Part shown: in pieces, positions 11,698 through 35,824 of the stretch
How the letters are laid out: each line of letters begins with the position of its first letter
How positions within the stretch are numbered: the first letter of the stretch is position 1
Source of the DNA: an uncultured Candidatus Bathyarchaeia archaeon
GTDB taxonomy: Archaea > Thermoproteota > Bathyarchaeia > Bathyarchaeales > Bathycorpusculaceae
Reading direction: 5' to 3'
DNA length: 48,396 nucleotides
Assembly (NCBI GenBank): GCA_964587975.1
Contig: CAZPND010000001.1
Location: 1-48,396 of the forward strand
Position numbers and translations under genes: made by a program
The notes under the pieces: model-generated
Database searches by the model: none
Told to the model about the DNA's origin: nothing
Seen by the model: the letters and a program-made list of their open reading frames with translations, nothing else

Positions 11698-12426
11698 ATG
11701 AGCCCAGTTTTAAATTTGAAAGAGATAATTGTCGAAGCGTTAACTGCTTTAGGCGGCTCTGGCTCCGTTTCTGAGGTAAAGCATTATCTTAAGTTGAAGT
11801 ATGGAAGGGAATGGAAGCACATTGAAACCGTCATGGCGGATCTCTCTGTAGAAAGCCAGTCATCTTTTTTCCTTCCAGAAGACAGAGTGCTGAGGAGAAT
11901 TGGACAGGGCAAGTACGCCTTGAAAACCCAAGGAGTTTCTGAGCCGCAAGAGGCAAAAGCGGACAGTTCAAGCACGGTGGCTTCAGACCTTGTTGGAGAA
12001 AGGAAGGTTTTCAGTTTTAAAGATGCGGAAGCGATACTGCAGAGGAAGGGGCAGCTTTCAACTATTCTAGAGGCTGCTTCCTTGACAGACTTGTCGTCAA
12101 AGGAAGATCATAAGCGGGTGCAGCATTTTCTGCATAAGAATCGGTGGGACATTGAAGTGTCGTTGTTTCCAGTGATAACCTACAAGCTTGACGCTTTCAA
12201 GGAGAAAACAGGGATCGAAATTGAACGGTCGTTAATTGATGCGGTTCACAGGTCGCTGTTCAGGTGCCTTTGGGCTCACGCTAAAAACCAGTTGGATGTG
12301 CTTGTTTTTATCGTTCCCACTTACAAGGAACCGAAGTTTGAGCAGGTGAAGCGGGACATACAGAAATTCGGGGAGATCATACCATACCCTGTTTACATTG
12401 TAGGCGCGACTCAGGCTCAGCCGTAA
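11698..12426 (+). CDS. hypothetical protein: N-terminal winged-helix (Mrr_N-like) plus possible BamHI/BglII-like nuclease core
   Basis: N-terminus IIVEALTALGGSGSVSEVKHYLKLKYG resembles restriction-system wHTH domains. C-terminus KLDAFKEKTGIEIERS gives a D-x(n)-E-x-E pattern. The functional call is weak. Confidence 0.45.
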   Translation: MSPVLNLKEIIVEALTALGGSGSVSEVKHYLKLKYGREWKHIETVMADLSVESQSSFFLPEDRVLRRIGQGKYALKTQGVSEPQEAKADSSSTVASDLVGERKVFSFKDAEAILQRKGQLSTILEAASLTDLSSKEDHKRVQHFLHKNRWDIEVSLFPVITYKLDAFKEKTGIEIERSLIDAVHRSLFRCLWAHAKNQLDVLVFIVPTYKEPKFEQVKRDIQKFGEIIPYPVYIVGATQAQP

Positions 12427-15456: not shown

Positions 15457-15720
15457 GCACATCCCTGATGTTATGCTAGGATGTTTCCGCAATTAAAGTG
15501 TTCTTGTCAAGATTTCTTGACCAACCGCCAGTTTCTTAGTCAAATTTTCTTGACCAGACCAGCATATTTGCCGCCTATTAGGATCCTAATAGCCAATCGT
15601 TGCAGAAACCTATAGAGGGGTAGGTCCTTATTGGGCGTTTTCTGCGCCAATAGCATGCGGAAAACGGCGCACGCACCTGCTTTAAATAAGGGGGGTATAG
15701 ACAAAAATTTGCACGTCAGT

Positions 15721-17613: not shown

Positions 17614-17751
17614 CCTGACCACACGCCTCCGTAACTGCACAACCACAACATGTTCACAGAAAAGATTAAATTAATTATGAATCAACCATATGAATTCCAA
17701 CGCACAACAGTGCTCAAACAAACCACAAAAACCAAACACGGTGAAACCACA

Positions 17752-18294
17752 ATGAACGAAACAAAACGCCGTATTCTCTCCTACGAGTTAGCAGGAACCA
17801 TCTTCATAATCACCCTCGGCACCATCCTGCACTTCACCTTCGAATGGTCCGGCAACCAACCCATCGTCGGCATATTCTCAGCGGTCAACGAAAGCGTATG
17901 GGAACACCTCAAACTAGGATTCTGGCCAGCCACAACATTCGCACTCATAGAATACCGCTACCTTAAGTCAAACAGCAACTTCCTAACCGCAAAAACCACA
18001 GGAATCTACCTAATCCCCATCACAATCACCGCAGTATTCTATTCGTACACAGCCATCCTGCACGAAACCATACTAGCCATAGACATACTAACATTCATCA
18101 TAGCCGTCATCGCCAGCCAACTAGCAAGCTACAAACTACTAACTTGGAAAACGCTGCCACCCAACCTAAACAAAATCGCGTTAACCGCTTTAATCCTGCT
18201 AGGTCTCGCATTCGTGCTTTTCACCTTCTACCCACCCCACATAGGACCATTTCAAGACCCCATAACCGACGCTTACGGAATCCCCAGCCAATAA
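17752..18294 (+). CDS. DUF6512-like integral membrane protein
   Basis: LHFTFEWSGNQPIVGIFSAVNESVWEHLKLGFWP matches my recollection of the DUF6512 signature (HF.YEWSG...NES.WEH.KL). About 5 TM helices. Start at ATG 17752. Confidence 0.55.
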   Translation: MNETKRRILSYELAGTIFIITLGTILHFTFEWSGNQPIVGIFSAVNESVWEHLKLGFWPATTFALIEYRYLKSNSNFLTAKTTGIYLIPITITAVFYSYTAILHETILAIDILTFIIAVIASQLASYKLLTWKTLPPNLNKIALTALILLGLAFVLFTFYPPHIGPFQDPITDAYGIPSQ

Positions 18295-22277: not shown

Positions 22278-22303
22278 AAAAGCTGGGGATGGGAATTGAA
22301 CCC
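22278..22303. repeat. attL: orphan copy of the tRNA-Cys 3' end (26-nt direct repeat)
   Basis: aaaagctggggatgggaattgaaccc is identical to 34498-34523. Confidence 0.8.
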
Positions 22304-22444: not shown

Positions 22445-22987
22445 TTGAGCGAGAGAGTGTCTGTTCCTGTTACTCAGCCCAAAAACTTGATTTGTAATTT
22501 TCGTGCTCCTAATCTGGAGCAGTACCAGCGTTGGAAGGCTTATGTTCAATGGGCTAAAGACAACGGCATGGATGTTTGCCACTTAACGCTTAGTTTGACT
22601 GATTCGTTCATGAGGGGCATTGAAGGCGCCGCTCAAGTGCGTAATGGGAATCAAGTTGTAAATATCCAACAGAACAACATTTTCCAGTATCAAGTTTCCA
22701 AACCTCGTCGAGAACCTTACGACTTGAGTTGTGTAAGAAGAGAGTTTCAGAAAACAATTAGCAGTGGTCTTTTTGAAGCCTATGTTCTTAACAAGGCGAG
22801 AGATTTAACGCGGGAATTTAGTTATCGAGACTTTTTAGAGTTAAAACATGACGCTTTTCGCAGAATCATATTGCGTTTGAGGCGTAAGGGCAAAATTGTG
22901 GCTAATCCTCAGCGCACCGTGCCCAGATTTTACTTTTTGGCTGAACGAATCAGCGAATACGCCTGTGATGGGAGAACAACACAGTAA
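22445..22987 (+). CDS. hypothetical protein, possible RHH-like N-terminus and wHTH-like C-terminus
   Basis: 180 aa, first gene inside attL. NLICNFRAPNLEQYQRWKAYVQWAKDNG fits a beta-strand plus helices. The basic C-terminus is AFRRIILRLRRKGKIV. TTG start. Function unknown. Confidence 0.45.
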   Translation: MSERVSVPVTQPKNLICNFRAPNLEQYQRWKAYVQWAKDNGMDVCHLTLSLTDSFMRGIEGAAQVRNGNQVVNIQQNNIFQYQVSKPRREPYDLSCVRREFQKTISSGLFEAYVLNKARDLTREFSYRDFLELKHDAFRRIILRLRRKGKIVANPQRTVPRFYFLAERISEYACDGRTTQ

Positions 22988-23213: not shown

Positions 23214-24047
23214 TTGTTAGTAAATAGCGTGAAATGGACAAGCTCGACATTAGACCTTCTTAAGGTCGCGTTTGGAAAGGAGCCTTTTTCTTTGAAACAA
23301 GCAGCTGTTGCCCTAAAGAAGGAAATGGGATATTCGTATAACGCAGCGCGTCAAGTTCTTCATGAACTCGTTAAAGCGGGTTCCTTAACCAAGTTGGGTC
23401 GCGGTCTATACAGAGTAGCTGAAAAGAAAGCAGTTCAAACAGAGGCACTTACGATCTCAGATAAACTCGTTGTTACGTTAACTTCTGGTTTTCTGATTCG
23501 GGCAGAGGAGGTTTTGAAAGAGAAAGGCGTTGAATTCATGGTTACGGGACCTTCAGCGTTGTCGCAGTTCGTTCATCTTTTGCCGAGAAGGCTCATACAT
23601 CTCATTTATGTTGTCGATGGGGCAGGCGAGTTTGCCACTGCAATTCTCAGAGAAGAGAACTTTCGGGTTTTCTTGAATCCTAAAGGGAACGAAGTTGAGA
23701 TGGCGCTTCAAGCTTTTGAAGACAGAGACATTTTTGTTATTCGGGAGTATGCAAAATTGGAGGGCAACGTTGAGGGAAGAGCCGTTCTAGAAAGGGCTCT
23801 TGTTGATACGTATTTTGAGGCAACGCGGCGGCGGATTCCGTTTTCAGAGGTGGAGGTAGGGCGAATCATGGCGAATGTGTTTAGGACGGAGAAGATTGAC
23901 ATTGCGAGGTTGTTGAGTCTTGCAGGGCGTCGAGGGGTGAAGGGTGAAATGCAATCGATTGTTAAGGCATTGATTCCTGATGTTCCTTTGTCTGCTGGCG
24001 TGACAAACGAAAAGGTTGAGCAGGTTCTTAAGGGAATTAGAGCGTGA
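23214..24047 (+). CDS. abiEi: AbiEi-family antitoxin / transcriptional regulator (type IV TA)
   Basis: N-terminal wHTH FSLKQAAVALKKEMGYSYNAARQVLHELVKAGSLTKLGRGLYRV is the typical AbiEi N-domain pattern. Its stop is 4 nt before the AbiEii start. An alternative, possibly leaderless, GTG start lies at 23229. Confidence 0.7.
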   Translation: MLVNSVKWTSSTLDLLKVAFGKEPFSLKQAAVALKKEMGYSYNAARQVLHELVKAGSLTKLGRGLYRVAEKKAVQTEALTISDKLVVTLTSGFLIRAEEVLKEKGVEFMVTGPSALSQFVHLLPRRLIHLIYVVDGAGEFATAILREENFRVFLNPKGNEVEMALQAFEDRDIFVIREYAKLEGNVEGRAVLERALVDTYFEATRRRIPFSEVEVGRIMANVFRTEKIDIARLLSLAGRRGVKGEMQSIVKALIPDVPLSAGVTNEKVEQVLKGIRA

Positions 24048-24051
24048 AAGA

Positions 24052-25206
24052 ATGGCGTTTATTCATGATGAGGCTTACTTCTCGGAGCGTAGTATTCGTG
24101 AAAGGGCTAACCGATACGGTTTTTCGGACCCATTGGCAGTAGAGATGTTTCTGTGGGACTGTGAAATCGCTGCCCAATTACAGAGTGAATCTGAAAAGTT
24201 CGTTTTGAAGGGCGGAGCTGCCGTGCAGTTTCACTTGCCAGTCGAGATGCAGAGAGGAAGTGTAGACGTAGACATTATTTGCCCCTACACAAAAAAGGAG
24301 ATAGCTGAAGCTTTATCTCGTATTCATAAACGGATTCCAACAGTGGAATTCGAGAAATACACGCCCAAGCGCCCGAAGAAAGAGATTAACATGGTGACAT
24401 ATCTTGCTAGAATGCCCGCGGTGCTTCCTTCAGAGAGCGGGAGACCCCGTGAGGTTAAAATTGATTTATTGCTTGAAGACCTCACGTTGCCCACTCAGAT
24501 CGTTACGGATGCGGAAACTTTCGCTGTGAAAGTCAAGAGGCTCAGGTGTTACTCGGCTATTTCGCTTATTGGAGATAAGCTTCTGACGCTGGCTGAGAAC
24601 ACCATAGGTATAACGGACTCAGCGGATATTCCAAAGCAAATTTATGATGTGGCCGTTCTAAGCGAAAGGCACAACCCAACGCCTGAGCAGTTTCCAGAGA
24701 TCGTCAAAATTATAGAAGCGGTGGCGCAACTTGAAATTGGATACAGAAGTTTAAAGATGACTGTGGTTGATGTACTTGCTGATGTCGAACGGACAATGGA
24801 AAAATATGGGCTTTTAGACACAGCAGGCGCGGATCCTGAGGTCAAAAGGAACATCACTAGTTTCCAGCAATTTTACGTTAGTGCATCTCAGAAGCGCCCT
24901 TTGTACGAATGGTGCGCGCGAGCGTTGAGAATTCGATTTCTTTCTGAACTACTTAGAGCTATTATTGAGGGCAAAGCCACTGCCGAAGAGGCTGGCAACG
25001 AGTATGGTTTAGCCGTTAAAATAACGCAATGGTTGAAAGTTCTTAGTGGCGAAAGAATCAAGGAGGTAAACAAGCAACTTATGGCCTCTGCGGATCAACA
25101 AATACCTCATTTTAAGAATCTTAAAGGCAAGCCTTTGCATCGCGTATTCTGGCAAGTAGTCAGTCGAAACAACTTGACCAAAATCCATGATTTGGTTAAA
25201 ACTTAA
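24052..25206 (+). CDS. abiEii: AbiEii/AbiGii-family nucleotidyltransferase toxin
   Basis: NTase signature FVLKGGAAVQFHLPVEMQRGSVDVDIICP (GG-x15-DxD). Genetic pairing with AbiEi. Start moved to ATG 24052. Confidence 0.75.
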   Translation: MAFIHDEAYFSERSIRERANRYGFSDPLAVEMFLWDCEIAAQLQSESEKFVLKGGAAVQFHLPVEMQRGSVDVDIICPYTKKEIAEALSRIHKRIPTVEFEKYTPKRPKKEINMVTYLARMPAVLPSESGRPREVKIDLLLEDLTLPTQIVTDAETFAVKVKRLRCYSAISLIGDKLLTLAENTIGITDSADIPKQIYDVAVLSERHNPTPEQFPEIVKIIEAVAQLEIGYRSLKMTVVDVLADVERTMEKYGLLDTAGADPEVKRNITSFQQFYVSASQKRPLYEWCARALRIRFLSELLRAIIEGKATAEEAGNEYGLAVKITQWLKVLSGERIKEVNKQLMASADQQIPHFKNLKGKPLHRVFWQVVSRNNLTKIHDLVKT

Positions 25207-25257: not shown

Positions 25258-25334
25258 CCTTAGCATGTAATGCTGAGGCAGAAAACAGATTAGAAGTAGT
25301 AGTCTAGCCAAAATCACAGCGGACTACTACTTCT
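25258..25334. other. two consecutive stable hairpins in the 363-nt spacer (terminator or structured RNA)
   Basis: Hairpin 1: ccttagcat/gta/atgctgagg (9 bp with one G-U, 25258-25278). Hairpin 2: agaagtagtagtc / 17-nt loop / gactactacttct (13 perfect bp, 25292-25334). Confidence 0.4.
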
Positions 25335-25569: not shown

Positions 25570-28500
25570 TTGATTGATGAAGATTTTGATTCGGTATTTG
25601 CTGGTGGAGATGAGGGTTCTGGTGGTTTACCTGTGTTGTCTGCGTCGGGGATTGCGGAGTATATCCGTTTTAATTGTTGTCCGCGGTTCTTTAAGTTGAA
25701 GTTTGGGGCTGTTGAGATACGGAATCGCAAGTGGATTGAGGCTTTTACGCCAATTAGCCCTCTGCTTTATGGTGCGGGGAAGGCTCTTGAGGAGAATAAA
25801 ATTTCCGAGTTGAAAGAGAAAGCAGCCAGATATTTTGACCTTAGTGATAACGATCCGCGAATTGTGGGGTGGGAAACTGCTTGGAAAAGTTCTCTGAGTA
25901 CCTTGCGCGAGGTGATTGAGAATAAGTTTTCTGATGAGGCGGGGGTTGGTTGTAAGCCTGTTTTGATTTATCAGGTTCCTATGAAAGGTCATATCGGTGT
26001 TTGGGATGTGAGAGGGGTTGCTGATTTGATTGGTGTTTGGCCTTCCGAGGATGGTAAGGTGAAGGTGAGGATTTTTGAGCTTAAGGCGTCTTGGAAAGAG
26101 CAAACCGCTCATCGCATACAGGTTGCGATTTATGTGTTGTTGCTTTCTCAAGAATTAGGAGATCTCTTTTCTAGGGTTGAGTTTGAGGGCGGAGTGATAA
26201 ACAAGGAGACTGATTTAGAGAATCTTGATCCTGATTGTCTTCCCCAGTTCAAGCTTGGTCCTCTTGTCATGGATGTGGAACGTCTGCTATCTGCTGATGG
26301 TGAGTTGCATAGGATTCATCAGACGCCTTTGCCGAAGGTTGAGTATCAGCTTTGTTGGAGGTGCGACAATTGTGGGTTTAATGAGTGCTGTGTTGTCAGT
26401 GCTGTTGAGAGCGAGAGTGTGGCGTTGCTTAATTTGACTAGGGGTGAGCAGAACGTGCTTCGCGGTTATGGTATTGAAAAGCTTGAGGACCTGGCTAGGT
26501 TGAAAGTTTTGCCGGATGCGGACAGGTTACGTCCTTATGATTTCAAGGGGCTTGCTGCGAGGGATGTTGAAAAGGTGAGTTTGTTGTCCACAGATCCTGT
26601 TGTTGGCGCTAGGCTGGATTGGCTTGTTCAGCGTGCGCAGTTCATGTTAGGTGGGATTCGACCTGGCAGCCCTTTTGCTAGTAGGAGTAGGCGCATGCCT
26701 TGGTTGACTGGAACGGGTTACGGTAGTCTTCCTGAGGATAGCGCGTTTGCTGGGGCGGATTCGGCGCTTTTGTTTAACACTGATGGCATGATTCGGGTCT
26801 ATCTCTTTGTTGAATGGGACTATATGCTAGATGTTATTTCGATGATTAGTGCTAGGGTGAGTTGCACAAGATATAGGGGGCAGTCTTTGGATGTGTCGCG
26901 AGTTATCGGGAGCCTTCCTGATGGGCGTGAGGACTGCTTGGATGAAGAAAAGAAGCTTTTGGAAAACTTTTTCCTTGAGGTTACCCAAGCGATAAGCAAG
27001 ATAGCTGCTGAGGTGGGGAGTCCCGATGAGGCTCCGATTCATCTTTATTTTTTTAGTCAGCGGGAACGGGATGTGTTGATGGATGCTGTTCGTCGTCAAC
27101 CTTCGTTGATGAGTGCTCGCGCTGTTCGTGACCTGCTTGGTCTAAGACAGGCTATTGATCAGCCGATGTTTTCGATTGTTCAAGATGAGGTTGTGCATAG
27201 AAAAGCTCTGAGGTTTCACAGTTCGGGTCTTTTGCCTATTCTTGATCAATCTGGTTTTTTTGACAATAAAGAATGGATGGTGAAGCGACGCGATGGTTCT
27301 TTGGTTGATTTGCGTTTTGTTTTTCGTGACGGATTTTTTAATTATGTTCTTCCTTATCGTAGGAATTCTGAGGGGGCAATTTCTTTTATTCTTGGGTTCG
27401 ATAGAGTCGGTCGTAAAGAGGGATATTATCCTGCTCGTGCTCGTTTTGGGGATCAAATTCCGATTGAATATGTGTGGGCTGCGAAGGGGCGATTGGATAA
27501 TCGTGAAGAGAAGGGCTTGGCTAAGATTTTTTTGGAGAAGCGAATGTGGTGTGATTATCCTCAGAAAACTAGAAGGATTACTGATGAAGAGCTTGCTCTT
27601 ATGGGTTTGAAGCTTTGTTTGGCTCTTGAGCACATTGAACGGTCGTTGTCGATTCGTAACAGGAGATTAGGTAAGAAGCCTATTGCTGTTCCTAAGATTT
27701 CGGAGTTTTCGTTGGGTCCTGTTACGTTGGAGCGAAGTTGTAGAGAGTTTTTGGATTTAGAGTATTTTGCGAAGCGCCAAGAGATGTATCAGCATTATGC
27801 TATGCTTCCGTATCAGCGGGTTGATTCGGGTAGATCGTTGATTTTTGAGTGTACAGGTGTGGAGGAGACGGAGAGGGGGTTTGTGGTTCAGGGCAGGCTC
27901 GTCTATGAGGGCCTCGGTGTTCCTAAGGCTGATTGTATCGCTAATGCTTGCAGGGTTAAGGGTTCAGAAGGCTCCAGCTCGGGCGATTGGATGGTTGTGA
28001 CTGAGCTAAGGCGTAACGAGGAAGGCCATTTTGAGGAGGTGCAGGGGCGTTCGCCTTCTGAGGTTGAAAGATCAGCTCGTGCTATTGTTGATAAGGTTAA
28101 TTCTCGCAAGCTAGAGCTTACCCTTAAAGTGGTTAACTGGCCAAGTGGCAGAAAACGGAAGTACAGTGCCTGGCATAATCTTCCTACTATTGATCCGGAG
28201 AAGGCGAAGAGCAAGTATATGCAGCTTTTTGAAGTTGGGCGATGGTACATTTTGGATGAGTTGGCTGATGACATCATTTCTGACAGGGCTGCAAAGTGCC
28301 TAGACTACGCTAGCAGTAATGTGCTTTATTGTCTGTTGGAGACCTTCTTAGCTGGCAAATCAATGGCTTCACGTGTAGCTTTACCTCAGGCTGCTGCTAC
28401 TTCCTTCTTGAAATGGGTTGAAGGCAGTAGTCTTCCTCCTAATGAGGAGCAAAAGCGCTTTGTTGATCGTGTTTTTGGGGAGGAGGCGATTGTTATGCTT

Positions 28501-29916
28501 CAGGGTCCTCCGGGAACTGGGAAAACTGAGACGTTGCAGTTAGCAGTCTTGGCTCATGTTGCGGCGCATAAGGCTGGTTCAAGGTGCAGGGTGTTGATGG
28601 TCGCGCCCACTCATAAGGCGATTCATGAGTTTGTGAGCAAGCTAGCTGGTTGTTGGCGGGATTACTGTGGTGGCGGCGGTAAGGATCTTGAGGATTTGAG
28701 GATTTACCGGGTTTTGAGTAGTGATGTTTCTTCGGTTAAACCGTTGGAGGGTGTTAAGTACGTTAATTATCATGAGGATTTGGAGGCGGTTGGTGAGCTT
28801 AGTGGTTGTTTGATGGGGCAGTCGACGTTGGTTTCTGTTGGTTCAGGTTTTCCTTTGGTTTTGTGTGCTACTCCTCCTGGTTTGTATGGTCTTATGAAGA
28901 AGATTGGTGGGTCTGAGCCGCCTTGGGGTGAGGGTTTTTTTGATTTGCTTGTTGTTGATGAGGCTAGTATGATGCGTTTGCCTGAGTTGATTCTTTCAGG
29001 TTCTTTTTTGTGTAAGAGTAGCCAGATTCTTGTGGCGGGGGATCATCGTCAGTTGCCTCCGATTCAGGCTCATAATTGGGAGAAGGAGGATCGGCGGACT
29101 TTGGAGGAGTTGGCTTCTTTCTTGTCGGCTATGGATTTTCTGCGTTTGCTGCGCATGGAGGATTTGGGGATTGACAGGATTAAGCGTGCTCAAGGAGCAG
29201 ATATTCCTACTGAGCGTTTGTGTGAGAGTCACAGGTGTCATACTGTTGTTGCGGAGTTTTTGAAAGAGTGGGTGTATGAGAAGGATAAAATTGATTTTCG
29301 TTCTGAGAGGCGGGAGACGTTGGATGTTTCTGAGCCTAATACGGATGGGTTGCGTGTTGCTCTTGAGCCGGGCAACGTGTTTGTTTTGATTGTTCATGAT
29401 GAGGCTGAGAGTTTTCAGTCGAATTTGGTTGAGGCATCGATCGTGGAGGTTTTGGTTCGTAATGTTCGGTCTAATAATGTGGGTGTGATTACGCCGCATA
29501 ATGCGCAAAAGGGCTTGCTGAAAAATATGCTGTCTGAGGGGTGCGAAAACGTGAGAGTTGACACGGTTGAGAAGTATCAGGGTGGGTCGGCGGATTTCGT
29601 TATTATTTCTTCTACGGTGAGTGACCCTGACTATGTTCGGTGCGAGAGTGATTTTCTGCTTAATTTGAACAGAATAAACGTGGCTATTTCCCGTATGAAA
29701 AAGAAGCTGGTTGTTGTTGCGAGTAAGTCGATTTTTGATTTCATGCCTCAGGATGCTAAGGACTATGATAAGGCTTTGTTGTGGCGCGGGATTTCTCATG
29801 CTGTTGGATTTACAGCTAAGTCAAAGCCGCGGTGGATGGGCACTCTGTCTGAGTTTCTTGGACAACAGGCTTCACCAATTAAGATTGAAGTTTACGTCAA
29901 GAGTGAGAAAGATTAA
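25570..29916 (+). CDS. 1448-aa fusion: Cas4/RecB-like PD-(D/E)XK nuclease (Cys cluster) + RNase-H-like middle domain + SF1B (Upf1/Dna2-like) helicase
   Basis: N-terminus: SASGIAEYIRFNCCPRFF, ADL...IFELK (ELK at 26077-26085), HRIQVAIY, CWRCDNCGFNECC (26353-26391). Middle: VYLFVEWDY, EEKKLLENFF, PIHLYFFSQRERDVL. Helicase: GPPGTGKT (28504-28527), VVDEASM, AGDHRQLPPI, ITPHNAQ, VEKYQGGSADFVIIS, NVAISRMKKKL. TTG start. Confidence 0.85.
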   Translation: MIDEDFDSVFAGGDEGSGGLPVLSASGIAEYIRFNCCPRFFKLKFGAVEIRNRKWIEAFTPISPLLYGAGKALEENKISELKEKAARYFDLSDNDPRIVGWETAWKSSLSTLREVIENKFSDEAGVGCKPVLIYQVPMKGHIGVWDVRGVADLIGVWPSEDGKVKVRIFELKASWKEQTAHRIQVAIYVLLLSQELGDLFSRVEFEGGVINKETDLENLDPDCLPQFKLGPLVMDVERLLSADGELHRIHQTPLPKVEYQLCWRCDNCGFNECCVVSAVESESVALLNLTRGEQNVLRGYGIEKLEDLARLKVLPDADRLRPYDFKGLAARDVEKVSLLSTDPVVGARLDWLVQRAQFMLGGIRPGSPFASRSRRMPWLTGTGYGSLPEDSAFAGADSALLFNTDGMIRVYLFVEWDYMLDVISMISARVSCTRYRGQSLDVSRVIGSLPDGREDCLDEEKKLLENFFLEVTQAISKIAAEVGSPDEAPIHLYFFSQRERDVLMDAVRRQPSLMSARAVRDLLGLRQAIDQPMFSIVQDEVVHRKALRFHSSGLLPILDQSGFFDNKEWMVKRRDGSLVDLRFVFRDGFFNYVLPYRRNSEGAISFILGFDRVGRKEGYYPARARFGDQIPIEYVWAAKGRLDNREEKGLAKIFLEKRMWCDYPQKTRRITDEELALMGLKLCLALEHIERSLSIRNRRLGKKPIAVPKISEFSLGPVTLERSCREFLDLEYFAKRQEMYQHYAMLPYQRVDSGRSLIFECTGVEETERGFVVQGRLVYEGLGVPKADCIANACRVKGSEGSSSGDWMVVTELRRNEEGHFEEVQGRSPSEVERSARAIVDKVNSRKLELTLKVVNWPSGRKRKYSAWHNLPTIDPEKAKSKYMQLFEVGRWYILDELADDIISDRAAKCLDYASSNVLYCLLETFLAGKSMASRVALPQAAATSFLKWVEGSSLPPNEEQKRFVDRVFGEEAIVMLQGPPGTGKTETLQLAVLAHVAAHKAGSRCRVLMVAPTHKAIHEFVSKLAGCWRDYCGGGGKDLEDLRIYRVLSSDVSSVKPLEGVKYVNYHEDLEAVGELSGCLMGQSTLVSVGSGFPLVLCATPPGLYGLMKKIGGSEPPWGEGFFDLLVVDEASMMRLPELILSGSFLCKSSQILVAGDHRQLPPIQAHNWEKEDRRTLEELASFLSAMDFLRLLRMEDLGIDRIKRAQGADIPTERLCESHRCHTVVAEFLKEWVYEKDKIDFRSERRETLDVSEPNTDGLRVALEPGNVFVLIVHDEAESFQSNLVEASIVEVLVRNVRSNNVGVITPHNAQKGLLKNMLSEGCENVRVDTVEKYQGGSADFVIISSTVSDPDYVRCESDFLLNLNRINVAISRMKKKLVVVASKSIFDFMPQDAKDYDKALLWRGISHAVGFTAKSKPRWMGTLSEFLGQQASPIKIEVYVKSEKD

Positions 29917-30068: not shown

Positions 30069-30755
30069 CTATTCTTCTAATAATCCCAATTTCTTGAGTC
30101 TTGATACTATAGCGCCTATTCCTCTCTGATGCTTAAATGCTAGCTGACGAGCGCTTGCTCCACCCTTGAATCCATTCACGAGATCTTCAATCTCGGCTGA
30201 TGTCCAAGGTTCATATGCTCGAGGCAAGGTTTTCCGAATTTCTTCAATGTTGTAAGGAAGATAGGGGCCACGAATTCGTTTTGTAATCGCTGTATCATCG
30301 CCGACAGGGTTGAAATTTGCTTTTCCAGTAATGAATGATACATATACTATGAACTTTTCTTCTGCCTCAAGATTCTTCAGTTTCTCCAAAGCGCTTTTAC
30401 TGGTAATGAAATTTAATTCGCTTGTTTTGGCGCGTACTTCAAACGCAGCAACAATCTTTTCGTCCGACATCCAAACTACATCTACAAAACTTGACTTCTC
30501 GGGATAGTTGATTTTCGGGTTTTCATAATCGAGCACAACTTTGTAACCGTTGTCGCTGCCGAGTTTACGTAATCTCAGTTTGGCTCTTTTTGCGAGTGGG
30601 GCGGGGTTCTCAATAGTTCCGAATGATTTGGATAATTCAGTTGGGTCTAATTTCGGCGAAGGTAGAGTTGTTGCCTCTTTCTCTAATTGAAAAGCGCAAT
30701 TTGGGCAAAATTTAAAGCTTTCTTGAGTATTGGTGTGACAATTGGGGCACTCCAA
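30069..30755 (-). CDS. Zn-ribbon + possible PD-(D/E)XK-like core + C-terminal HTH protein
   Basis: MECPNCHTNTQESFKFCPNCAF (two CxxC pairs). FVDVVWMSDEKIVAAFEVRAK (D...E-x-R/K pattern). C-terminus RAYEPWTSAEIEDLVNGFKGGASARQLAFKHQRGIGAIVSRLKKLGLL is a Myb/sigma-r4-like HTH. TTG start preceded by GGAGAG. Confidence 0.55.
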   Translation of the reverse strand: MECPNCHTNTQESFKFCPNCAFQLEKEATTLPSPKLDPTELSKSFGTIENPAPLAKRAKLRLRKLGSDNGYKVVLDYENPKINYPEKSSFVDVVWMSDEKIVAAFEVRAKTSELNFITSKSALEKLKNLEAEEKFIVYVSFITGKANFNPVGDDTAITKRIRGPYLPYNIEEIRKTLPRAYEPWTSAEIEDLVNGFKGGASARQLAFKHQRGIGAIVSRLKKLGLLEE

Positions 30756-31185: not shown

Positions 31186-32457
31186 ATGAAGACACAAAAA
31201 GCTGGAATGCTAAAAATGTGCTTGGAGAAACTTGGATTGAAGCGAAATTCAACTGAAAAGGGAAACCTATCCGAACTGGAGCAGGATTTACGGAAATTAG
31301 AGACATGCTACAGAAAGCTCAGAATATCAAGGATCCTCAGAATTCTGCTTATTGGTTTTCTGTGGGAGAAAGATGTTGAAAAGCGAATAAAAGAGCTGAC
31401 TGAGAAGATTCAGAATCGAATTAGCGGCAATTTTTGTGAAATCAGCAAAATCGTTGGGGAAATAGAAAGAAGCGGCACCTATCTTATCTACCCTGCAAAG
31501 GCGAATTATATTTCTATGATAGAACGAGCTGAGGCTGATGTAGCTGCGTTTGAAAGAAACCAGATTTTTAAACCTGATTTCTTTGGCAACATGAAAAGAA
31601 AGCTTAACGACATCAAAATGTTTGTAATTAACTATAATGACGAGTTTGTGAATCAGAGGAAAAATGAGTATAGGCATCTATGGTCGAAAGGCTCGATTTC
31701 TCTGGACGATGAGCAACAAACGGCTATTGTTACGGATGACAAGCACAATCTTGTGGTTGCAGCCGCAGGCTCGGGCAAAACTGAAGTGCTCATAACCAGA
31801 ATTGCCTACTTGATAAAGCGGAAACCCGATGGTGTGGAGCCTAATCGGACTCTGGCAATAGCATATCAGAGAAAGGCAAAGGAACAAATCGAACAGCGCC
31901 TAAAGGACCGATACGGAATTGAAGACGTGTGGGTCAGAACGTTTCACAAACTTGGGAAAGACATTCTTGAACGTTCCGGCAGAATAATAGAGAGAACAGA
32001 CATTGTTGATGAAAACAAAAAGTTTGGTTTTGTAAAGAGTTTTTTTGAGGAAGAGTTAGTCACTAATCGAGATTTTTATCGGTTGTTTATTCGTTACATA
32101 AAAACTGTTCGTGACGGTGATGATGAGCCGAATGATGCAGATAAGAGAGAGGTTGCTGCTCACGCCAGAGAACGTAGTTACATTTCAATTAATGGTACGA
32201 AGGTAAATAGCAAGGCTGAAAAAGAAATTATGGATTGCCTGCTGACTCATAAAATCAATGGAAAGCCCATTTTTGTTGATTACGAACCGGACATTGGCGG
32301 TTTCAGACCTGACTTTTGTCTTCCCCAATTTGACATTTTTATTGAGCATTGGGGCCTTCGCAAAGATGGTCAAGTGCCAGGATGGTTCAGTCAATCTACC
32401 GACTCATTCTGGAAAGTCAATACAAGAATCTCAGCCAACTCGTCAGAACAGCCATAA
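31186..32457 (+). pseudogene. 3'-truncated helicase IV / UvrD-like gene (motifs I-Ia and the embedded nuclease-like insert only)
   Basis: DDEQQTAIVTDDKHNLVVAAAGSGKTEVLITRIAYL, TLAIAYQRKAKEQIEQRL, VRTFHKLG. Then the insert pattern KAEKEIMDCLLTHKING...FRPDFCLPQFDIFIEHWGLRKDG. No DExx or later helicase motifs. The last ~22 codons are an RHH gene read out of frame. Confidence 0.7.
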
Positions 32458-32489
32458 CTGAACTTCTCAAAAAACACGAGGAGAACTAA
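32382..32489 (+). pseudogene. ribbon-helix-helix (CopG/Arc-like) gene fragment, N-terminal strand missing
   Basis: Frame 0 gives MVQSIYRLILESQYKNLSQLVRTAITELLKKHEEN. NLSQLVRTAITELL is a typical RHH helix 2. It overlaps the end of the truncated helicase ORF, and its stop is 4 nt before the next gene. Confidence 0.35.
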
Positions 32490-32493
32490 AACA

Positions 32494-32874
32494 GTGCTTA
32501 ACAAGCAAGCCGATTTTCTTGTTAAGCTCCGTGACGCGGGTCAGATGATTGCCGACGCAGCAAACGAGCTCCTCGCATCTATGGCTCCACCTGAGCACGA
32601 AGTTAGAAAAGAGCACGCTGCCGTTGGCGAGATAACATTTACGATACTGAAATGGGACGCTCAAACGTGCTCCAAACTAGGCGATTTCGAGGTAGCATAC
32701 AAGTCCAGCAACATAGAAGATAAGTGGCAGCATGCATTCAACATCCTCAGAAACTCAAACGCCACCATCAAAGAACGATACTATGGAGCAGGCTACGGCT
32801 TTTCGTACTGGATTTACGCTCAAGATAAAATCTACCGACAAAAACTCAAACCAAAAGCTGACTCTGGAGGTTAA
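32494..32874 (+). CDS. hypothetical protein (126 aa)
   Basis: GTG start 4 nt after the RHH fragment stop. No motif recognised. Confidence 0.45.
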   Translation: MLNKQADFLVKLRDAGQMIADAANELLASMAPPEHEVRKEHAAVGEITFTILKWDAQTCSKLGDFEVAYKSSNIEDKWQHAFNILRNSNATIKERYYGAGYGFSYWIYAQDKIYRQKLKPKADSGG

Positions 32875-32879
32875 CTTTC

Positions 32880-33203
32880 TTGAACAAATACGCAACATGG
32901 GCGAAGCTAAATCTTGAAGGAAAACGAGCTTGGGGCACCATCTTCCCAAACGGCGTGGTCCCTGTTCAAAGCATCGCAACGCAGCACGTAAAACTGGAAG
33001 ACATAAAGGGCGTTGAGTCCGTGTTCACAGTAGACTGGAAAGAACTAACCCAAAAACAGCAACAAGCTATACTTGAAAACTTAAGCGAGCGAACAGGCTC
33101 CACGAAAGAAACGATATTGAAGGAAATTTTGAAAGTGGGTCTACCTCTTCGCCGAAGATACACAGGCGGTTGCGGCACAAGCCGAATGGAGCTTTTCACC
33201 TAA
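32880..33203 (+). CDS. hypothetical protein (107 aa)
   Basis: TTG start. Ends 14 nt before the integrase ATG. No motif recognised. Confidence 0.4.
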   Translation: MNKYATWAKLNLEGKRAWGTIFPNGVVPVQSIATQHVKLEDIKGVESVFTVDWKELTQKQQQAILENLSERTGSTKETILKEILKVGLPLRRRYTGGCGTSRMELFT

Positions 33204-33217
33204 AGAAGGCTCAGCTC

Positions 33218-34411
33218 ATGGATGACCTGCCAAAAGAAATCTCTGCTCCCATAAGCTTGTCTTGCCCGCGCTGCAGATCCAGAAGGCTTTGGCGGGCTGG
33301 CGTAAGACACTCAACTTTTGGCGATCAAATCCAACGCTGGTTCTGTCGAGACTGTCGATTTCGATTTTCTGACCCTGCAGATGTTGAGAAGGCTTGGAGC
33401 GCGATAGAACGGTTCGAAAGGCAGTCATTAAAAAGCGGAGACGACATAGTGTCTAACAGCCAAATATGCGTCACGGAGACGAAAAACTTGGCAGCGGAAC
33501 AACAGAAAACTGAAGTTCTGCGAAGAAACGACCTATCCACAGCTAAAGGAAAAATCGTCGAATACGAATTCTGGATGATGAAACAAGGATACGCAAAAAC
33601 AACAATCGAAGCACGCGGCAGAATCATGAACCGCTTGGTAAGACTCGGCGCCAACCTCTACGACCCAGAGCAAATCAAAGAAATCATCGCCAAACAACCT
33701 TGGAGTGAAGGAAGAAAAGAAGTCGTCACCGAAACCTACAGCAACTACCTCGTCATGGCAGGAGGAAAATGGAACCCGCCAAGATACCACAGAATCGAGA
33801 AAATACCCTTCATCCCCACCGAACAAGAAATCGACCAACTAATCGCCGGATGCGGAGAGAAAACCACGGCTCTGCTTCAAGCACTCAAGGAAACAGGCAT
33901 GCGAGTAGGAGAAGCCTGGAAACTTAAATGGACCGACATCGACTACGTAAACGCAACAATCAGTATAACACCAGAGAAAGGCAGCCACGCCCGCATGTTC
34001 AAAGTCAGCAATAAACTGCTCGCTATGCTCAACACCCTACCCAAAAAATCAGACAAAATATTCGGCACCTACGAACTCCGCGGATACCGAAGCTCCTTCA
34101 CCCGACAACGCAAAAGAACAGCAATCAAACTCCAGAACCCAAGAATTAACCAAATAACCTTCCACACCTTCCGCCACTGGAAAGCCACCATGGAATACCA
34201 CCGAACCAAAGACATCCTCTACGTCATGCGCCTACTCGGCCACAAGAACATCAAAAACACCCTGATCTACACGCAACTCGTAACCTTCGAGAACGATGAC
34301 TTCGTCTGCAAAGTAGCCACCAACACCAAAGAAGCCAAAGAGCTCATCGAAGCGGGATTCGACTTTGTCTGCAAAATAGAGAATGAAAGCTTGTTCAGAA
34401 AGAGGAAGTAA
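33218..34411 (+). CDS. tyrosine recombinase / integrase with N-terminal Zn-ribbon
   Basis: CPRCRSRRLW...FCRDCRFRF. Catalytic region ITFHTFRHWKATMEY...LLGHKNIKNTLIYTQL (R, HxxR, H, Y). Reads toward attR and the tRNA. Start set at ATG 33218. Confidence 0.9.
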   Translation: MDDLPKEISAPISLSCPRCRSRRLWRAGVRHSTFGDQIQRWFCRDCRFRFSDPADVEKAWSAIERFERQSLKSGDDIVSNSQICVTETKNLAAEQQKTEVLRRNDLSTAKGKIVEYEFWMMKQGYAKTTIEARGRIMNRLVRLGANLYDPEQIKEIIAKQPWSEGRKEVVTETYSNYLVMAGGKWNPPRYHRIEKIPFIPTEQEIDQLIAGCGEKTTALLQALKETGMRVGEAWKLKWTDIDYVNATISITPEKGSHARMFKVSNKLLAMLNTLPKKSDKIFGTYELRGYRSSFTRQRKRTAIKLQNPRINQITFHTFRHWKATMEYHRTKDILYVMRLLGHKNIKNTLIYTQLVTFENDDFVCKVATNTKEAKELIEAGFDFVCKIENESLFRKRK

Positions 34412-34497: not shown

Positions 34498-34523
34498 AAA
34501 AGCTGGGGATGGGAATTGAACCC
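34498..34523. repeat. attR: 26-nt direct repeat overlapping the 3' end of tRNA-Cys
   Basis: Identical to 22278-22303. Confidence 0.8.
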
Positions 34524-34573
34524 ATATAGAGCAGCTCTGCAGGCTACCGCCTGAACCGTTCGGCCACCCCAGC
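34501..34573 (-). tRNA. tRNA-Cys (anticodon GCA), no encoded CCA
   Basis: Hand-folded 73-nt cloverleaf. Acceptor GCTGGGG/CCCCAGC. D stem GCC/GGC. Anticodon stem GTAGC/GCTGC with loop CTGCAGA. 5-nt variable loop. T arm ATGGG-TTCAATT-CCCAT. Discriminator U73, the Cys identity element. Confidence 0.9.
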
Positions 34574-34693: not shown

Positions 34694-35824
34694 TTATGTT
34701 GTGATTGTTTCGTTCCAGAAGATGAGTTGGCTGTAGCCGTAGGTGTTGTTTGGTTCTAGTCCATCATCGTATATTATGTCAAGGTTATACTCGTATTTTT
34801 CGATTAGGGTGCCTAGGTTCTGGCAGAGTTGGTCGGAAAAGTTGTCGGCTTCCCAGAAACCCCAAATCTTGTCGTCTGGTCCTCGGAAGCCGTACGCGTA
34901 GTCTTTTGGAAGAACGTATGCGACCCTGTCGCTGAGTGGAACGCTGCTTCTGGGGTTGTTTTGCACGTAATGCCAGAATACTCTTAATGCTTCCAGCTGC
35001 TCTTTTCCTAAGGTTCCGTGGGTGTAATCTTCGTTTGAGTCAAAAATTATGATGTATTTTGCTCCGTTTTCGTACGCCAACATCAGGTCCTTGAAAAGTT
35101 CTAAGCGTGGTTCGATGTACGGTGGATTGGTGTACGTCCATGTAACTATGGCTCCCCAATCTTTTCCCTGCATGGTAGCTGCACCCCTGCACAGCGCAAA
35201 ATTCAACTGCCTGCTGTAATTCCAACCCAACTGCGCGAAAACCGTGTCGTATCCACCTTTGTAGTCGAACCAATAAAGGGCGTAGTCAGAAGTGAACAAA
35301 GGATACCTTGTAGAGTTGGTATAAGACCACTTGTACCAATCCAAAACCCAATTCATTTCATCGACGAACTGGTTTGCAGCATCGGTGTAATTCTCGGCTT
35401 CCGAAACCACTCTATGTCCTTGAAAGTCCAGTTGCCAACCGCCCGCCTCATCATAAGCGTAGAATCCCAAAAATCGGTCTCCCCATTTTGCTTTCGCCTC
35501 TTCAAGCCACTCTGTTGGAGGCGCATAATGTTCCCTGTAAACCATGAAGTACATGCCTTTGTCGTAGATGTACTGGCACATCTCATCAAGTCTCGTATCG
35601 TTATGAGTTATTCCCGTGCATCCTAGAATGAAGAGATTGGTGTATGAGCTTACCTCGTCAATCGTCTGCTTGGTTTCTTCCATGTTTTCGTACGCCGCGT
35701 CAATACCAACAAACAGGTCTGATGGTTCTTTTCGTGCGACGTTATTGGCGGGAACTCCGATACGTAAGAATAACATCATTATCAGCAAAGAAACAAGCAT
35801 GACGACAGGATATATTGGTTTCAT
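34694..35824 (-). CDS. signal-anchored extracytoplasmic protein, unknown function (possibly glycan-active, weak)
   Basis: N-terminal MKPIYPVVMLVSLLIMMLFL. Aromatic-rich soluble part with alternating beta/alpha character (FLGFYAYDEAGGWQLD, GAKYIIIFDSNEDY). Confidence 0.5.
   Translation of the reverse strand: MKPIYPVVMLVSLLIMMLFLRIGVPANNVARKEPSDLFVGIDAAYENMEETKQTIDEVSSYTNLFILGCTGITHNDTRLDEMCQYIYDKGMYFMVYREHYAPPTEWLEEAKAKWGDRFLGFYAYDEAGGWQLDFQGHRVVSEAENYTDAANQFVDEMNWVLDWYKWSYTNSTRYPLFTSDYALYWFDYKGGYDTVFAQLGWNYSRQLNFALCRGAATMQGKDWGAIVTWTYTNPPYIEPRLELFKDLMLAYENGAKYIIIFDSNEDYTHGTLGKEQLEALRVFWHYVQNNPRSSVPLSDRVAYVLPKDYAYGFRGPDDKIWGFWEADNFSDQLCQNLGTLIEKYEYNLDIIYDDGLEPNNTYGYSQLIFWNETITT

Follow-up and report, generated by a model that had tools for sequence, protein, structure and literature searches.

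The analysed window, a 48,396-nt stretch from a Bathyarchaeia archaeon, carries a gene encoding a 1448-aa protein in which a Cas4/RecB-type nuclease, an exonuclease-like domain and an SF1B helicase are combined in a single chain. In Bathyarchaeia this is best read as a housekeeping gene, inherited vertically and almost always present in a single copy, and we favour, with some reserve, the view that its product is a Dna2/AddB-like genome-maintenance enzyme processing DNA ends or flaps, with the copy in the window being captured or relocated cargo of an integrated island rather than part of a defence system.

Domain architecture of the nuclease-helicase

The open reading frame (25570-29916, forward strand, stop codon included) starts with TTG, and the public gene call is an identical 1448-aa protein (P0001). 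From the N-terminus, it comprises a PD-(D/E)XK nuclease, a helix-hairpin-helix (HhH), an RNase H/DEDD-like domain (~300 aa), stalk and barrel elements that are probably of Upf1 type, and an SF1B helicase. The first-pass annotation had located this frame correctly, as well as the ELK motif (aa 170-172, 26077-26085) and a Cys cluster (aa 262-274, 26353-26391); its three-part anatomy is supported by Pfam, by residue conservation and by a fold-level match for the middle part, and its Dna2-like layout by the order of the domains, with the predicted Fe-S nuclease N-terminal to the SF1B helicase. Residue conservation was assessed in a 43-sequence alignment including members down to 28% identity.

The Cas4/RecB-type nuclease proposed earlier (aa ~20-280, 25627-26409, forward strand) was confirmed by a Pfam PDDEXK_1 match over aa 77-274 (24.5 bits, cut-off 22) and by the invariant residues D152, K172, Q184 and Y188, the last two forming a QxxxY motif, while position 170 is D or E throughout the alignment (E170-x-K172 in the window protein). 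Among the cysteines formerly assigned to an Fe-S cluster, C37, C265, C268 and C274 are conserved in 31-34 of the 43 sequences in a C...CX2CX5C arrangement and are the predicted 4Fe-4S ligands, whereas C36, C262 and C273 show no conservation in the same alignment. The HhH (aa ~283-312, LLNLTRGEQNVLRGYGIEKLEDLARL; 26416-26505, forward strand) appears as three short helices in AlphaFold model 1, and a weak TIGR03491 match covers aa 246-312 (score 21.5, cut-off 97.45).

In the middle region, an RNase H-like or DEDD-exonuclease-like core is predicted from fold and motifs at aa ~405-560 (26782-27249, forward strand), and AlphaFold models (pLDDT 86-88) display a b1-b2-b3-aA-b4-aB core. The earlier RNase-H-like assignment holds at the level of the fold, the top Foldseek matches all being DEDD exonuclease or RNase H folds, but none of these reaches E<=1e-3, and no Pfam family was matched in 24/24 members tested. 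D417, E460 and H491 are invariant; the D-x-E position of motif I is degenerate (F413/E415 in the window protein, N-x-Q in most members), and the catalytic D-x-E is missing from 43/43 members examined. Judging from these residues, the domain is probably catalytically inactive. It is followed by an alpha/beta extension (aa ~561-719, 27250-27726, forward strand), defined by the alignment, the AlphaFold model and Pfam, with invariant P631 and Y634 and no recognisable Pfam family, and by long stalk helices flanking a beta-barrel (aa ~720-930, 27727-28359, forward strand), delimited by the secondary structure of AlphaFold model 1, where R750 and G754 are invariant. In the model, the barrel probably corresponds to a Upf1/Sen1-type domain 1B; Foldseek matches to Setx, Sen1 and Upf1 have probabilities of 0.82-0.98 over ~190 columns, but E values of just 0.015-0.08, and the search output gives no query range for them.

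The C-terminal part (aa ~950-1400, 28417-29769, forward strand) is the complete SF1B, Upf1/Dna2-type helicase core recognised at first pass, with matches to Pfam AAA_11 and AAA_12 (E 4e-17 and 3e-20, respectively), PDB profile matches to Upf1/NAM7, IGHMBP2, DNA2 and Sen1, and the motifs GPPGTGKT, VVDEASM, GDHRQLPP, TPHNAQ, QGG and ISRMKKKL; the SF1B motifs are all invariant in the 43-sequence alignment. Since this motor is, by sequence, equally close to RNA helicases (Upf1, IGHMBP2, Sen1) and to Dna2, it does not in itself demonstrate a DNA substrate.

The tRNA-Cys island

The gene is located between the two att copies of a 12.2-kb island at tRNA-Cys (GCA; 34501-34573, reverse strand), the integration target. 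The distal copy, an exact 26-nt duplicate of the tRNA-Cys 3' end, marks the left boundary (22278-22303, forward strand), and the proximal copy, within that 3' end, the right one (34498-34523, forward strand); 0 such exact direct repeats are expected by chance. A tyrosine integrase (33170-34411, forward strand; Pfam Phage_integrase, E 1e-19) has a 60% identical counterpart adjoining tRNA-Cys in locus L085. The repeat and the integrase bear out and sharpen the tRNA-integrated island of the first-pass annotation, which had also rightly placed the gene after an AbiE module, had rightly reported no Rep, primase or capsid genes nearby, and described a long structured 5' spacer and a compositional signature of the gene's own. 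Directly upstream are an AbiEi-like antitoxin/regulator (23214-24047, forward strand; Pfam AbiEi_4 and DUF6577) and an AbiEii nucleotidyltransferase toxin (24016-25206, forward strand; Pfam AbiEii, E 2e-16). The island further contains a 180-aa ORF of no family (22445-22987, forward strand), a 228-aa zinc-ribbon protein (30069-30755, reverse strand), and a 423-aa protein with the N-terminal half only of a UvrD-type ATPase (31186-32457, forward strand; matching positions 1-181 of the 271 in the Pfam UvrD-helicase profile). As for the 5' spacer, its 363 nt show no significant folding (z = -1.87) and no Rfam match; it contains one perfect 13-bp hairpin. The G/T-rich coding-strand skew of the gene is real but not unique, a stronger one being present at 16-18 kb.

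The closest relative of the protein (90% identical) is encoded at L085, where tRNA-Cys and a related integrase lie ~4 kb downstream of the gene with other genes in between, and this copy is probably also within a tRNA-Cys integrated island. At the nucleotide level, the nuclease-helicase genes of the window and L085 are 88% identical and the integrases 67%, and the rest of the element displays no similarity.

Bathyarchaeia orthologs and the wider family

Full-length orthologs (64-82% identity) were found at 79 species-level Bathyarchaeia loci, a count based on a locus search by exact peptide words, with just one MAG carrying the gene twice. In the 78 other species-level genomes the orthologs are chromosomal and show clade-specific synteny: at about 30-35 loci the gene lies between LysW-X-Y-Z-J-K and AspK-HSDH-ThrC, and other clades have other fixed arrangements. 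The element genes of the window recur in 0/78 other loci, and AbiE adjoins the ortholog only in this contig. Scoring of homolog neighbourhoods, as suggested at first pass, showed that defence genes are not enriched among the 147 immediate neighbours of Bathyarchaeia orthologs; PADLOC matches there were scattered, several of them on generic folds, and none of the 25 commonest Pfam families is an integrase, Rep or primase. Median pairwise identity was 77% for the gene vs. 80-88% for the adjacent Lys/Thr enzymes, compared over identical genome pairs; the gene is nearly as slow to diverge as these biosynthetic enzymes, at a housekeeping-like rate. Furthermore, the gene tree follows the synteny of the chromosome, pointing to vertical inheritance.

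In a search with aa 1-940, matches were obtained to 472 representative clusters, 179 of them at E<=1e-30, and among the 150 matches listed the full-length entries are mostly 1400-1650 aa, covering aa ~20-930; the architecture is thus that of a real family, best read as widespread, uncharacterised archaeal single-chain nuclease-helicases of ~1400-1600 aa. We found no solved structure of or paper on the family, and no members in IMG/VR or GenBank phages. The three-domain version, unrecognised at first pass, is not new to databases, some members being listed in RefSeq as 'bifunctional RecB family nuclease/DEAD/DEAH box helicase'. Four distant acidic (halophile-type) members share the synteny RadA-(RNR)-PCNA-...-gene-TopoVI B/A or PriS, and a 560-kb Salinibaculum replicon carries ThyA-DHFR-gene-...-PolB. 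Plasmid paralogs are patchy, with nine on haloarchaeal megaplasmids and one on a Chloroflexota plasmid, and several adjoin a Piwi protein (pAgo), restriction endonucleases, a Dpd-like cluster, or RNase H-like and DEAD helicase pairs; haloarchaeal plasmid neighbourhoods include a Piwi protein with a Mre11/Rad50-like pair, a Dpd-like cluster of three DpdA-like genes and a PLD protein, and YprB/YprA-like pairs.

Related systems and candidate functions

Dna2, either eukaryotic or of the PF08696-bearing archaeal type, shares with our protein a PD-(D/E)XK nuclease that has a C...CX2CX5C Fe-S cluster and precedes an Upf1/Dna2-clade SF1B helicase, a probable barrel/stalk between both, and a chromosomal gene amid replication and repair genes. 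Orthology to Dna2 was rejected, as PF08696 is not matched and the similarity to Dna2 is restricted to the helicase, the sequence match to Dna2 structures being confined to domain 2A; haloarchaeal Dna2-type proteins (~890 aa) constitute a separate family (E ~1e-24 to 1e-26), and our family has an extra ~400-aa HhH and exonuclease-like module. The homologs are conserved and chromosomal, largely as in the counter-case raised by the first-pass annotation, but they are not the Dna2 orthologs that it named. TM0106-type RecB-like nucleases with RNase_H_2 (PF13482), including SF1-helicase fusions of ~1100-1250 aa (alignment A5), have an identical domain order (Cas4-like 4-Cys nuclease, HhH, RNase H-fold domain, SF1 helicase), and their helix/strand pattern E...LLE.F ... 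H.Y.Y..E aligns with our family; however, TIGR03491 scores far below its cut-off (21.5 vs. 97.45), hhalign gives E 0.042 only, PF13482 is undetected in any member, D-x-E is absent in 43/43, and the helicase sequence motifs differ. AddAB and RecBCD likewise join a RecB-family nuclease (Fe-S in AddB) to SF1 motors for DNA-end processing, but they consist of several subunits, their motors being UvrD/Rep-type SF1A and their nucleases C-terminal, whereas the window protein has its nuclease at the N-terminus and an SF1B motor in the same, single chain. In these systems one machine serves both repair and defence, a precedent in keeping with the mixed contexts of the nuclease-helicase family.

The defence or element-maintenance machine first proposed is unsupported for this subfamily, given its fixed chromosomal synteny in 78 other species, its neighbourhoods and its rate of divergence. 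A defence nuclease-helicase, Nhi/Hna-like or RecBCD/AddAB-like against linear invader DNA, would break down DNA ends of viruses or plasmids, and the island with AbiE would be a small defence island. Its position in the tRNA island directly after AbiEi/AbiEii, and the Piwi, restriction endonuclease, Dpd-like or YprB/YprA-like neighbours of haloarchaeal plasmid paralogs, would agree with such a role, as would the best PADLOC matches, the defence-system helicases MkoA (E 5e-44 over aa 1123-1390), DpdJ and MkoC; Nhi, Hna and Mokosh MkoA/MkoC are also single polypeptides with nuclease and helicase, and the Upf1-like core resembles MkoA. These matches are nonetheless limited to the helicase core and include no Nhi or Hna model, the protein has no PLD domain or partner as in Mokosh, its orthologs lie outside defence islands, AbiE adjacency is peculiar to this contig, and halophile-type members are found among RadA, PCNA, TopoVI and PriS. 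We consider this explanation unlikely, and the defence link survives only for the distant plasmid-borne haloarchaeal paralogs.

A role in RNA or R-loop surveillance appears improbable. Such an enzyme would clear RNA or RNA:DNA hybrids with its Upf1/Sen1-like motor, the hybrid being recognised through the RNase H-like domain and cut by the nuclease. The best solved-structure and profile matches of the motor are Upf1/NAM7, IGHMBP2 and Sen1 (E 1e-28 to 1e-30), Foldseek ties the similar-looking stalk and barrel to Sen1/Setx, and an RNase H-like fold is present; these eukaryotic RNA/DNA helicases, however, have no fused Fe-S nuclease or exonuclease-like domain, Cas4/AddB/Dna2-type Fe-S nucleases are DNA nucleases (Cas4 review, PMC5704561), the HhH is a DNA-binding motif, halophile-type neighbours are DNA replication and recombination genes, and the RNase H-like domain is devoid of the metal-binding D-x-E. 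More improbable still is an enzyme of the integrated element itself, for its replication, excision or copy control: the gene is inside the att-bounded element, which has no other recognisable replication gene, and L085 combines the same gene with a related integrase/tRNA-Cys arrangement, but orthologs at the 78 other loci are unlinked to element genes or an integrase-bearing context, viral contigs and phage records hold no family member, the gene tree points to vertical inheritance, and a comparison with L085 shows much stronger conservation of the gene than of the integrase or the remaining element.

Counting against a genome-maintenance enzyme are the location of the gene between att copies of an integrase-bearing island, the similar arrangement at L085, and the defence-adjacent plasmid paralogs. 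As such an enzyme, the nuclease-helicase would act at ends, flaps or stalled forks of chromosomal DNA, as Dna2 or AddB do: its Upf1/Dna2-type SF1B motor would translocate 5'->3' along single-stranded DNA, the N-terminal Fe-S nuclease would cut the strand delivered by the motor, and the HhH and the exonuclease-like domain, with its D-x-E lost, may be scaffolds that bind DNA or guide the strand, and not a second nuclease. The window copy would then be captured or relocated cargo of the tRNA-Cys island, beside an unrelated AbiE module.

Domain anatomy of the nuclease-helicase

The ORF listing places a single 1448-aa reading frame at 25570-29916 (+), and a public gene call (P0001) corresponds to the same protein with 100% identity and coverage; thus, the giant ORF proposed in the first-pass annotation is real, and the motif coordinates assigned to it were correct. 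Pfam recognized PDDEXK_1 on aa 77-274 (24.5 bits vs a cut-off of 22) and AAA_11/AAA_12 on aa 958-1386 (E 4e-17 and 3e-20). In an alignment of 43 family sequences with identities down to 28% (alignment A1), the nuclease residues D152, K172, Q184 and Y188 are invariant and position 170 is D or E, while the helicase motifs are all invariant and the middle region contributes the invariant residues D417, E460, H491, P631, Y634, R750 and G754. Regarding the proposed Fe-S cluster ligands, C37, C265, C268 and C274 are conserved in 31-34 of the 43 sequences and reproduce the C...CX2CX5C pattern of Cas4, AddB and Dna2; the remaining cysteines listed in the annotation are not conserved in this alignment. 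These results bear out both the claimed anatomy and the Dna2-like layout.

No Pfam family was detected in the middle ~600 residues of the window protein or of 24 diverse members, aa 1-940 displayed no sequence match among all PDB chains, and a full-length profile matched PDB entries through the helicase alone. AlphaFold models were built on family alignments for aa 280-945 (666 residues, pLDDT 87.9) and aa 395-720 (326 residues, pLDDT 86.3). These predict an HhH at aa ~283-312; a b1-b2-b3-aA-b4-aB core at aa ~405-560, where D417 ends b1 while aA and b4 bear E460 and H491, respectively; an alpha/beta extension between this core and the stalk/barrel; and long helices flanking a beta-barrel at aa ~720-930. 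In Foldseek searches against PDB and BFVD, the fold classes obtained with both models were consistent, with no match at E<=1e-3. All top matches of the 326-residue domain model were DEDD-exonuclease or RNase H folds (prob up to 0.99, best E 2e-3 to 5e-3), including the ASFV PolB exonuclease domain, Orn/REXO2, ERI2, 3'hExo, the ESRP1 RNase H-type domain, PIWI and phage exonucleases. The 666-residue model weakly matched Setx/Sen1/Upf1 (prob 0.82-0.98, ~190 columns, E 0.015-0.08), which probably reflects the modelled stalk and 1B barrel, the aligned query range being absent from the Foldseek output. According to a mapping derived from a weak alignment, the catalytic D-x-E (Exo I) motif falls on positions 413/415, where the window protein has F/E and most family members have N/Q; on this same mapping the motif occurs in 0 of the 43 members. 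Since these positions are degenerate in 43 of 43 sequences, we infer that the middle domain is a putative RNase H-fold pseudo-exonuclease.

This region had been likened to the domain fused to TM0106-type RecB nucleases; nevertheless, the TM0106 family model TIGR03491 scores 21.5 bits vs a cut-off of 97.45, on aa 246-312 only, and PF13482 (RNase_H_2) was not found in the giant protein or in 24 family members. A related architecture is displayed by proteins of ~1100-1250 aa that carry a 4-Cys Cas4-like nuclease, an HhH, a bona fide PF13482 domain (motifs FFDFEGDP ... HIYHYAxYE ... YNRxD) and an SF1 helicase. The profile-profile comparison (hhalign) with these PF13482-bearing nuclease-helicases was marginal (E 0.042, probability 1.3%) and was used for motif mapping only; it superposes E460/LLExF and H491-x-Y on their PF13482-family equivalents.

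The tRNA-Cys island and its surroundings

A tyrosine integrase (33170-34411, Pfam) adjoins a tRNA-Cys gene (34501-34573, -). A 26-nt segment from the 3' end of this tRNA occurs twice in direct orientation without a mismatch, at 22278-22303 and at 34498-34523, where chance predicts 0 such matches; this agrees with the earlier description of a tRNA-integrated island that includes an AbiE module. A third or degenerate att copy between the giant gene and the integrase, which would leave the gene outside, was not found at up to 3 mismatches; the gene thus lies within the island as conventionally delimited. The 12.2-kb content comprises a 180-aa ORF, AbiEi, AbiEii, the giant gene, a zinc-ribbon protein, a half-UvrD protein, two small ORFs and the integrase. 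A metagenome scan for the left junction or an empty site recovered the occupied form only (locus L170).

The 363-nt spacer 5' of the giant gene, described in the first-pass annotation as long and structured, has no Rfam match, and 6 of 100 shuffled versions folded at least as well (z = -1.87); its fold is thus not significant. A perfect 13-bp hairpin (AGAAGTAGTAGTC / GACTACTACTTCT, 17-nt loop) is located at 25292-25334, 86 nt past the abiEii stop codon, and is a candidate terminator or recognition site. Further into the island, a 423-aa protein matches the N-terminal half of the UvrD ATPase profile only, and the family-less small ORFs 32494-32874 and 32880-33203 come next on this strand; the interval 31186-33203 (+) may therefore represent a disrupted UvrD-like helicase gene. 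The gene of the zinc-ribbon protein (30069-30755, -) converges on the giant gene; near the C-terminus of this protein, the stretch FVDVVW ... AAFEVRAK might be read as a PD-(D/E)XK motif.

Outside the island, a PAS/response-regulator/histidine-kinase gene (15721-17646, -) displays extreme strand composition in 16001-18000 (+ strand GC skew -0.63 and -0.55, AT skew +0.37 and +0.33), which accounts for the antisense 472-aa ORF open at 15631-17049; a 25-nt tandem repeat (2.3 copies, 16893-16947) is found within the same gene. A 242-aa ORF at 11698-12426 (+) shows a sub-threshold BglII match (23.3 bits vs a cut-off of 26).

Comparative context in Bathyarchaeia and beyond

Protein searches recovered more than 120 clusters of full-length homologs at 67-90% identity, all named ones from Bathyarchaeia and many on Mb-size contigs, and scanning one genome per GTDB species yielded 79 loci at 64-82% identity. 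The sole MAG with two loci is MFD05942.bin.2.268, where one copy is found in the usual synteny of its clade (67% to the window) and a 78%-identical copy on a 5.2-kb contig (L053 and L077); the second copy could be real or a binning artefact, as several Bathyarchaeia bins come from the same sample. The flanking ORFs of all loci were clustered in order to compare neighborhoods. In about 30-35 loci, the ortholog is preceded by AsnC and LysW-X-Y-Z-J-K and/or followed by AspK-HSDH-ThrC; a second fixed arrangement corresponds to one monophyletic clade, and two smaller arrangements exist besides. The topology of an NJ tree of 70 orthologs follows the synteny types, and therefore indicates vertical inheritance. 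Median identity in the same genome pairs is 77% for the giant gene and 80-88% for the adjacent LysX/Y/J/K, HSDH and ThrC; the gene diverges at a housekeeping-like rate.

None of the island genes of the window was found in any other species locus. Among 147 immediate neighbors, the commonest Pfam families are beta-propeller, TrkA, TFB, CCA-adding enzyme and response regulators, with no integrase, Rep or primase in the 25 most frequent families. PADLOC matches to these neighbors (E<=1e-5) are few among those listed, with <=3 members per family and several on generic folds; most of the matches listed belong to one Dcm-type methylase, and three 'Cyclase' matches are taken to be the three CCA-adding enzymes recognized by Pfam. 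This context hence does not support a defence reading: the 78 other species display fixed chromosomal synteny, no island genes and few defence matches.

A 376-aa protein encoded just outside the island (34694-35824, -) belongs to cluster 10 of the flanking ORFs, which is fast-evolving (median 37% identity) and is the immediate upstream neighbor of the giant gene throughout another clade (type-B loci, e.g., L044, 8684-9871). This protein and Mrp genes flank the island and are also found near giant-gene orthologs elsewhere, which might be read as a sign that the gene is native at this position. That reading is weak, as cluster 10 evolves fast and has several copies in some loci, and as Mrp subunits are paralogs of one another; moreover, the 20 loci scanned, cluster-10 loci included, contained no tRNA, nor is there one between cluster 10 and the giant gene. 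The proximity may be a coincidence or a remnant of ancestral linkage.

The window and its closest relative with available context, L085 (90% aa and 88% nt identity over the giant gene), form an ordinary branch that is sister to L051, a locus with ribosomal-protein context. In L085 (6786-12000), a 60%-identical integrase and a tRNA-Cys follow the giant gene at a distance of about 4 kb; the intervening genes (nitroreductase, SfsA and unknowns) are wholly different, as is the upstream gene, and no second att copy is present within the 2.4 kb available upstream. In this lineage, the tRNA-Cys may be a hot spot at which integration recurs. Conservation is much higher in the giant gene than elsewhere in the island, which fits a selected host function captured by, or moved into, an island whose cargo turns over rapidly.

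Beyond this class, a search of aa 1-940 against 1.84 billion representatives matched 472 clusters, 179 of them at E<=1e-30; of the 150 entries listed, most of those that are full-length have 1400-1650 aa and cover aa ~20-930. Distant members, from cluster look-ups and profile search, are metagenome proteins only, and IMG/VR contigs and GenBank phages contained no family members, with matches restricted to the helicase core. Most sequences in the 43-member alignment are strongly acidic, and strong protein acidity is a halophile signature. Four uncultured loci with acidic proteomes (L167, L169, L180 and L181; contigs of 80-130 kb) share the order RadA-(RNR)-PCNA-coiled-coil-...-(ThyA-DHFR)-DUF7123-gene-TopoVI B/A or PriS, where RNR contains an intein once.

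Ten plasmid members were recovered from PLSDB by tblastn, nine on haloarchaeal megaplasmids and one on a Chloroflexota plasmid, named in RefSeq as 'AAA domain-containing protein' or 'bifunctional RecB family nuclease/DEAD/DEAH box helicase'. A 'restriction endonuclease' gene lies immediately 3' of the homolog in Halalkalicoccus and Haladaptatus pallidirubidus, pairs of RNase H-like protein and DEAD helicase are found in Salinirubellus and Haloglomus, a 1091-aa PD-(D/E)XK nuclease and a DEAD helicase in Halobaculum, and ThyA-DHFR upstream with PolB downstream in Salinibaculum. On the Salinigranum rubrum plasmid NZ_CP026313.1 (L173, 3541-14485), an adjoining upstream Piwi-domain protein, the homolog, and a downstream metallophosphoesterase and DSB-repair-type AAA ATPase are encoded on one strand; this block could represent a pAgo operon that encodes dedicated enzymes for end processing. 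In Haladaptatus sp. YSMS36 (NZ_CP119784.1, L178), the homolog is found among three DpdA-like tRNA-guanine transglycosylase genes, an ATP-binding protein, DUF6884, a PLD-like protein and a very large DEAD/DEAH helicase, a setting that looks like a Dpd-like 7-deazaguanine DNA-modification cluster and fits the PADLOC match of the helicase core to DpdJ. Because these plasmid contexts are mixed and exist beside the chromosomal synteny, the family has two lifestyles, one core and one accessory and defence-adjacent, the latter recalling the dual use of RecBCD/AddAB.

Relation to known systems and proposed role

The giant protein shares with Dna2 a PD-(D/E)XK nuclease with C...CX2CX5C, N-terminal to the helicase, and an SF1B core with all motifs, its PDB profile matches including DNA2 5eaw/5ean (E 4e-25). 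However, the Dna2-specific PF08696 has no match in the giant protein at E<=1, Dna2 structures match family profile positions 1251-1382 only, and the PF08696-bearing archaeal Dna2-type proteins P0315 and P0318 match it only at about 1e-24 to 1e-26. Since PF08696 has no match and the canonical Dna2-type proteins of archaea belong to another family, the giant protein is not a Dna2 ortholog, although its Bathyarchaeia orthologs are conserved chromosomal genes.

The resemblance to Nhi and Hna was not supported by PADLOC profiles either: neither is among the 23 families matched at E<=1, which presupposes that both models are in PADLOC-DB 2.0.0. The patchiness and defence-island setting of Nhi/Hna-type systems are absent in the 78 other Bathyarchaeia species, whose synteny is fixed, and a comparable patchy, defence-adjacent setting was seen for the distant haloarchaeal plasmid paralogs only. 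Mokosh models were matched over the helicase core only, the MkoA match being limited to aa 1123-1390 (profile positions 791-1080 of 1112), and the Mokosh PLD domain is absent from the giant protein and its neighbors. Scores for Cas4 fall below both cut-offs (PF01930, 17.1 vs 22.7; TIGR00372, 11.8 vs 65), with no repeat array within the window and no cas genes among the neighbors. No description of the family was found in the literature on TM0106, PF13482, archaeal Cas4 and Upf1-like fusions, or Bathyarchaeota Dna2; the family is uncharacterized, with neither a solved structure nor a Pfam model for its ~600-aa middle region.

With the integration of these findings, we lean towards a role in the processing of chromosomal DNA ends, flaps or forks, in which a 5'->3' SF1B motor would be coupled to the Fe-S RecB-type nuclease, with the fossil exonuclease domain acting as a scaffold. 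A defence role, to which the island and the AbiE neighbor initially pointed, is unlikely: the reading of the gene as a defence machine on an island was overturned by fixed synteny, a housekeeping-like rate and the lack of recurring island genes, making this a cautionary case in which comparative context reversed an interpretation drawn from location. A function in RNA or R-loop surveillance appears improbable, and maintenance of the integrated element very improbable.

A broader reading, which we put forward as a tentative possibility, is that the family would constitute an undescribed single-chain archaeal counterpart of RecBCD/AddAB/Dna2, a DNA-end hub with a fossil exonuclease domain that would be core in Bathyarchaeia and in a halophilic lineage (between RadA/PCNA and TopoVI/PriS), repeatedly recruited by pAgo, Dpd-like and restriction modules on haloarchaeal megaplasmids, and captured here by an integrative element. 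If this is true, one enzyme serves both genome maintenance and immunity.

End resection and flap processing in archaea are usually credited to Mre11-Rad50-HerA-NurA, Fen1 and, in some lineages, Dna2. This family, which comprises hundreds of 50%-identity clusters and is conserved at a housekeeping-like rate, would be a new component of genome maintenance in archaea. It would also offer a natural test case of a repair nuclease-helicase co-opted by pAgo, Dpd or restriction modules, a question made experimentally approachable by the cultured haloarchaea that carry paralogs.
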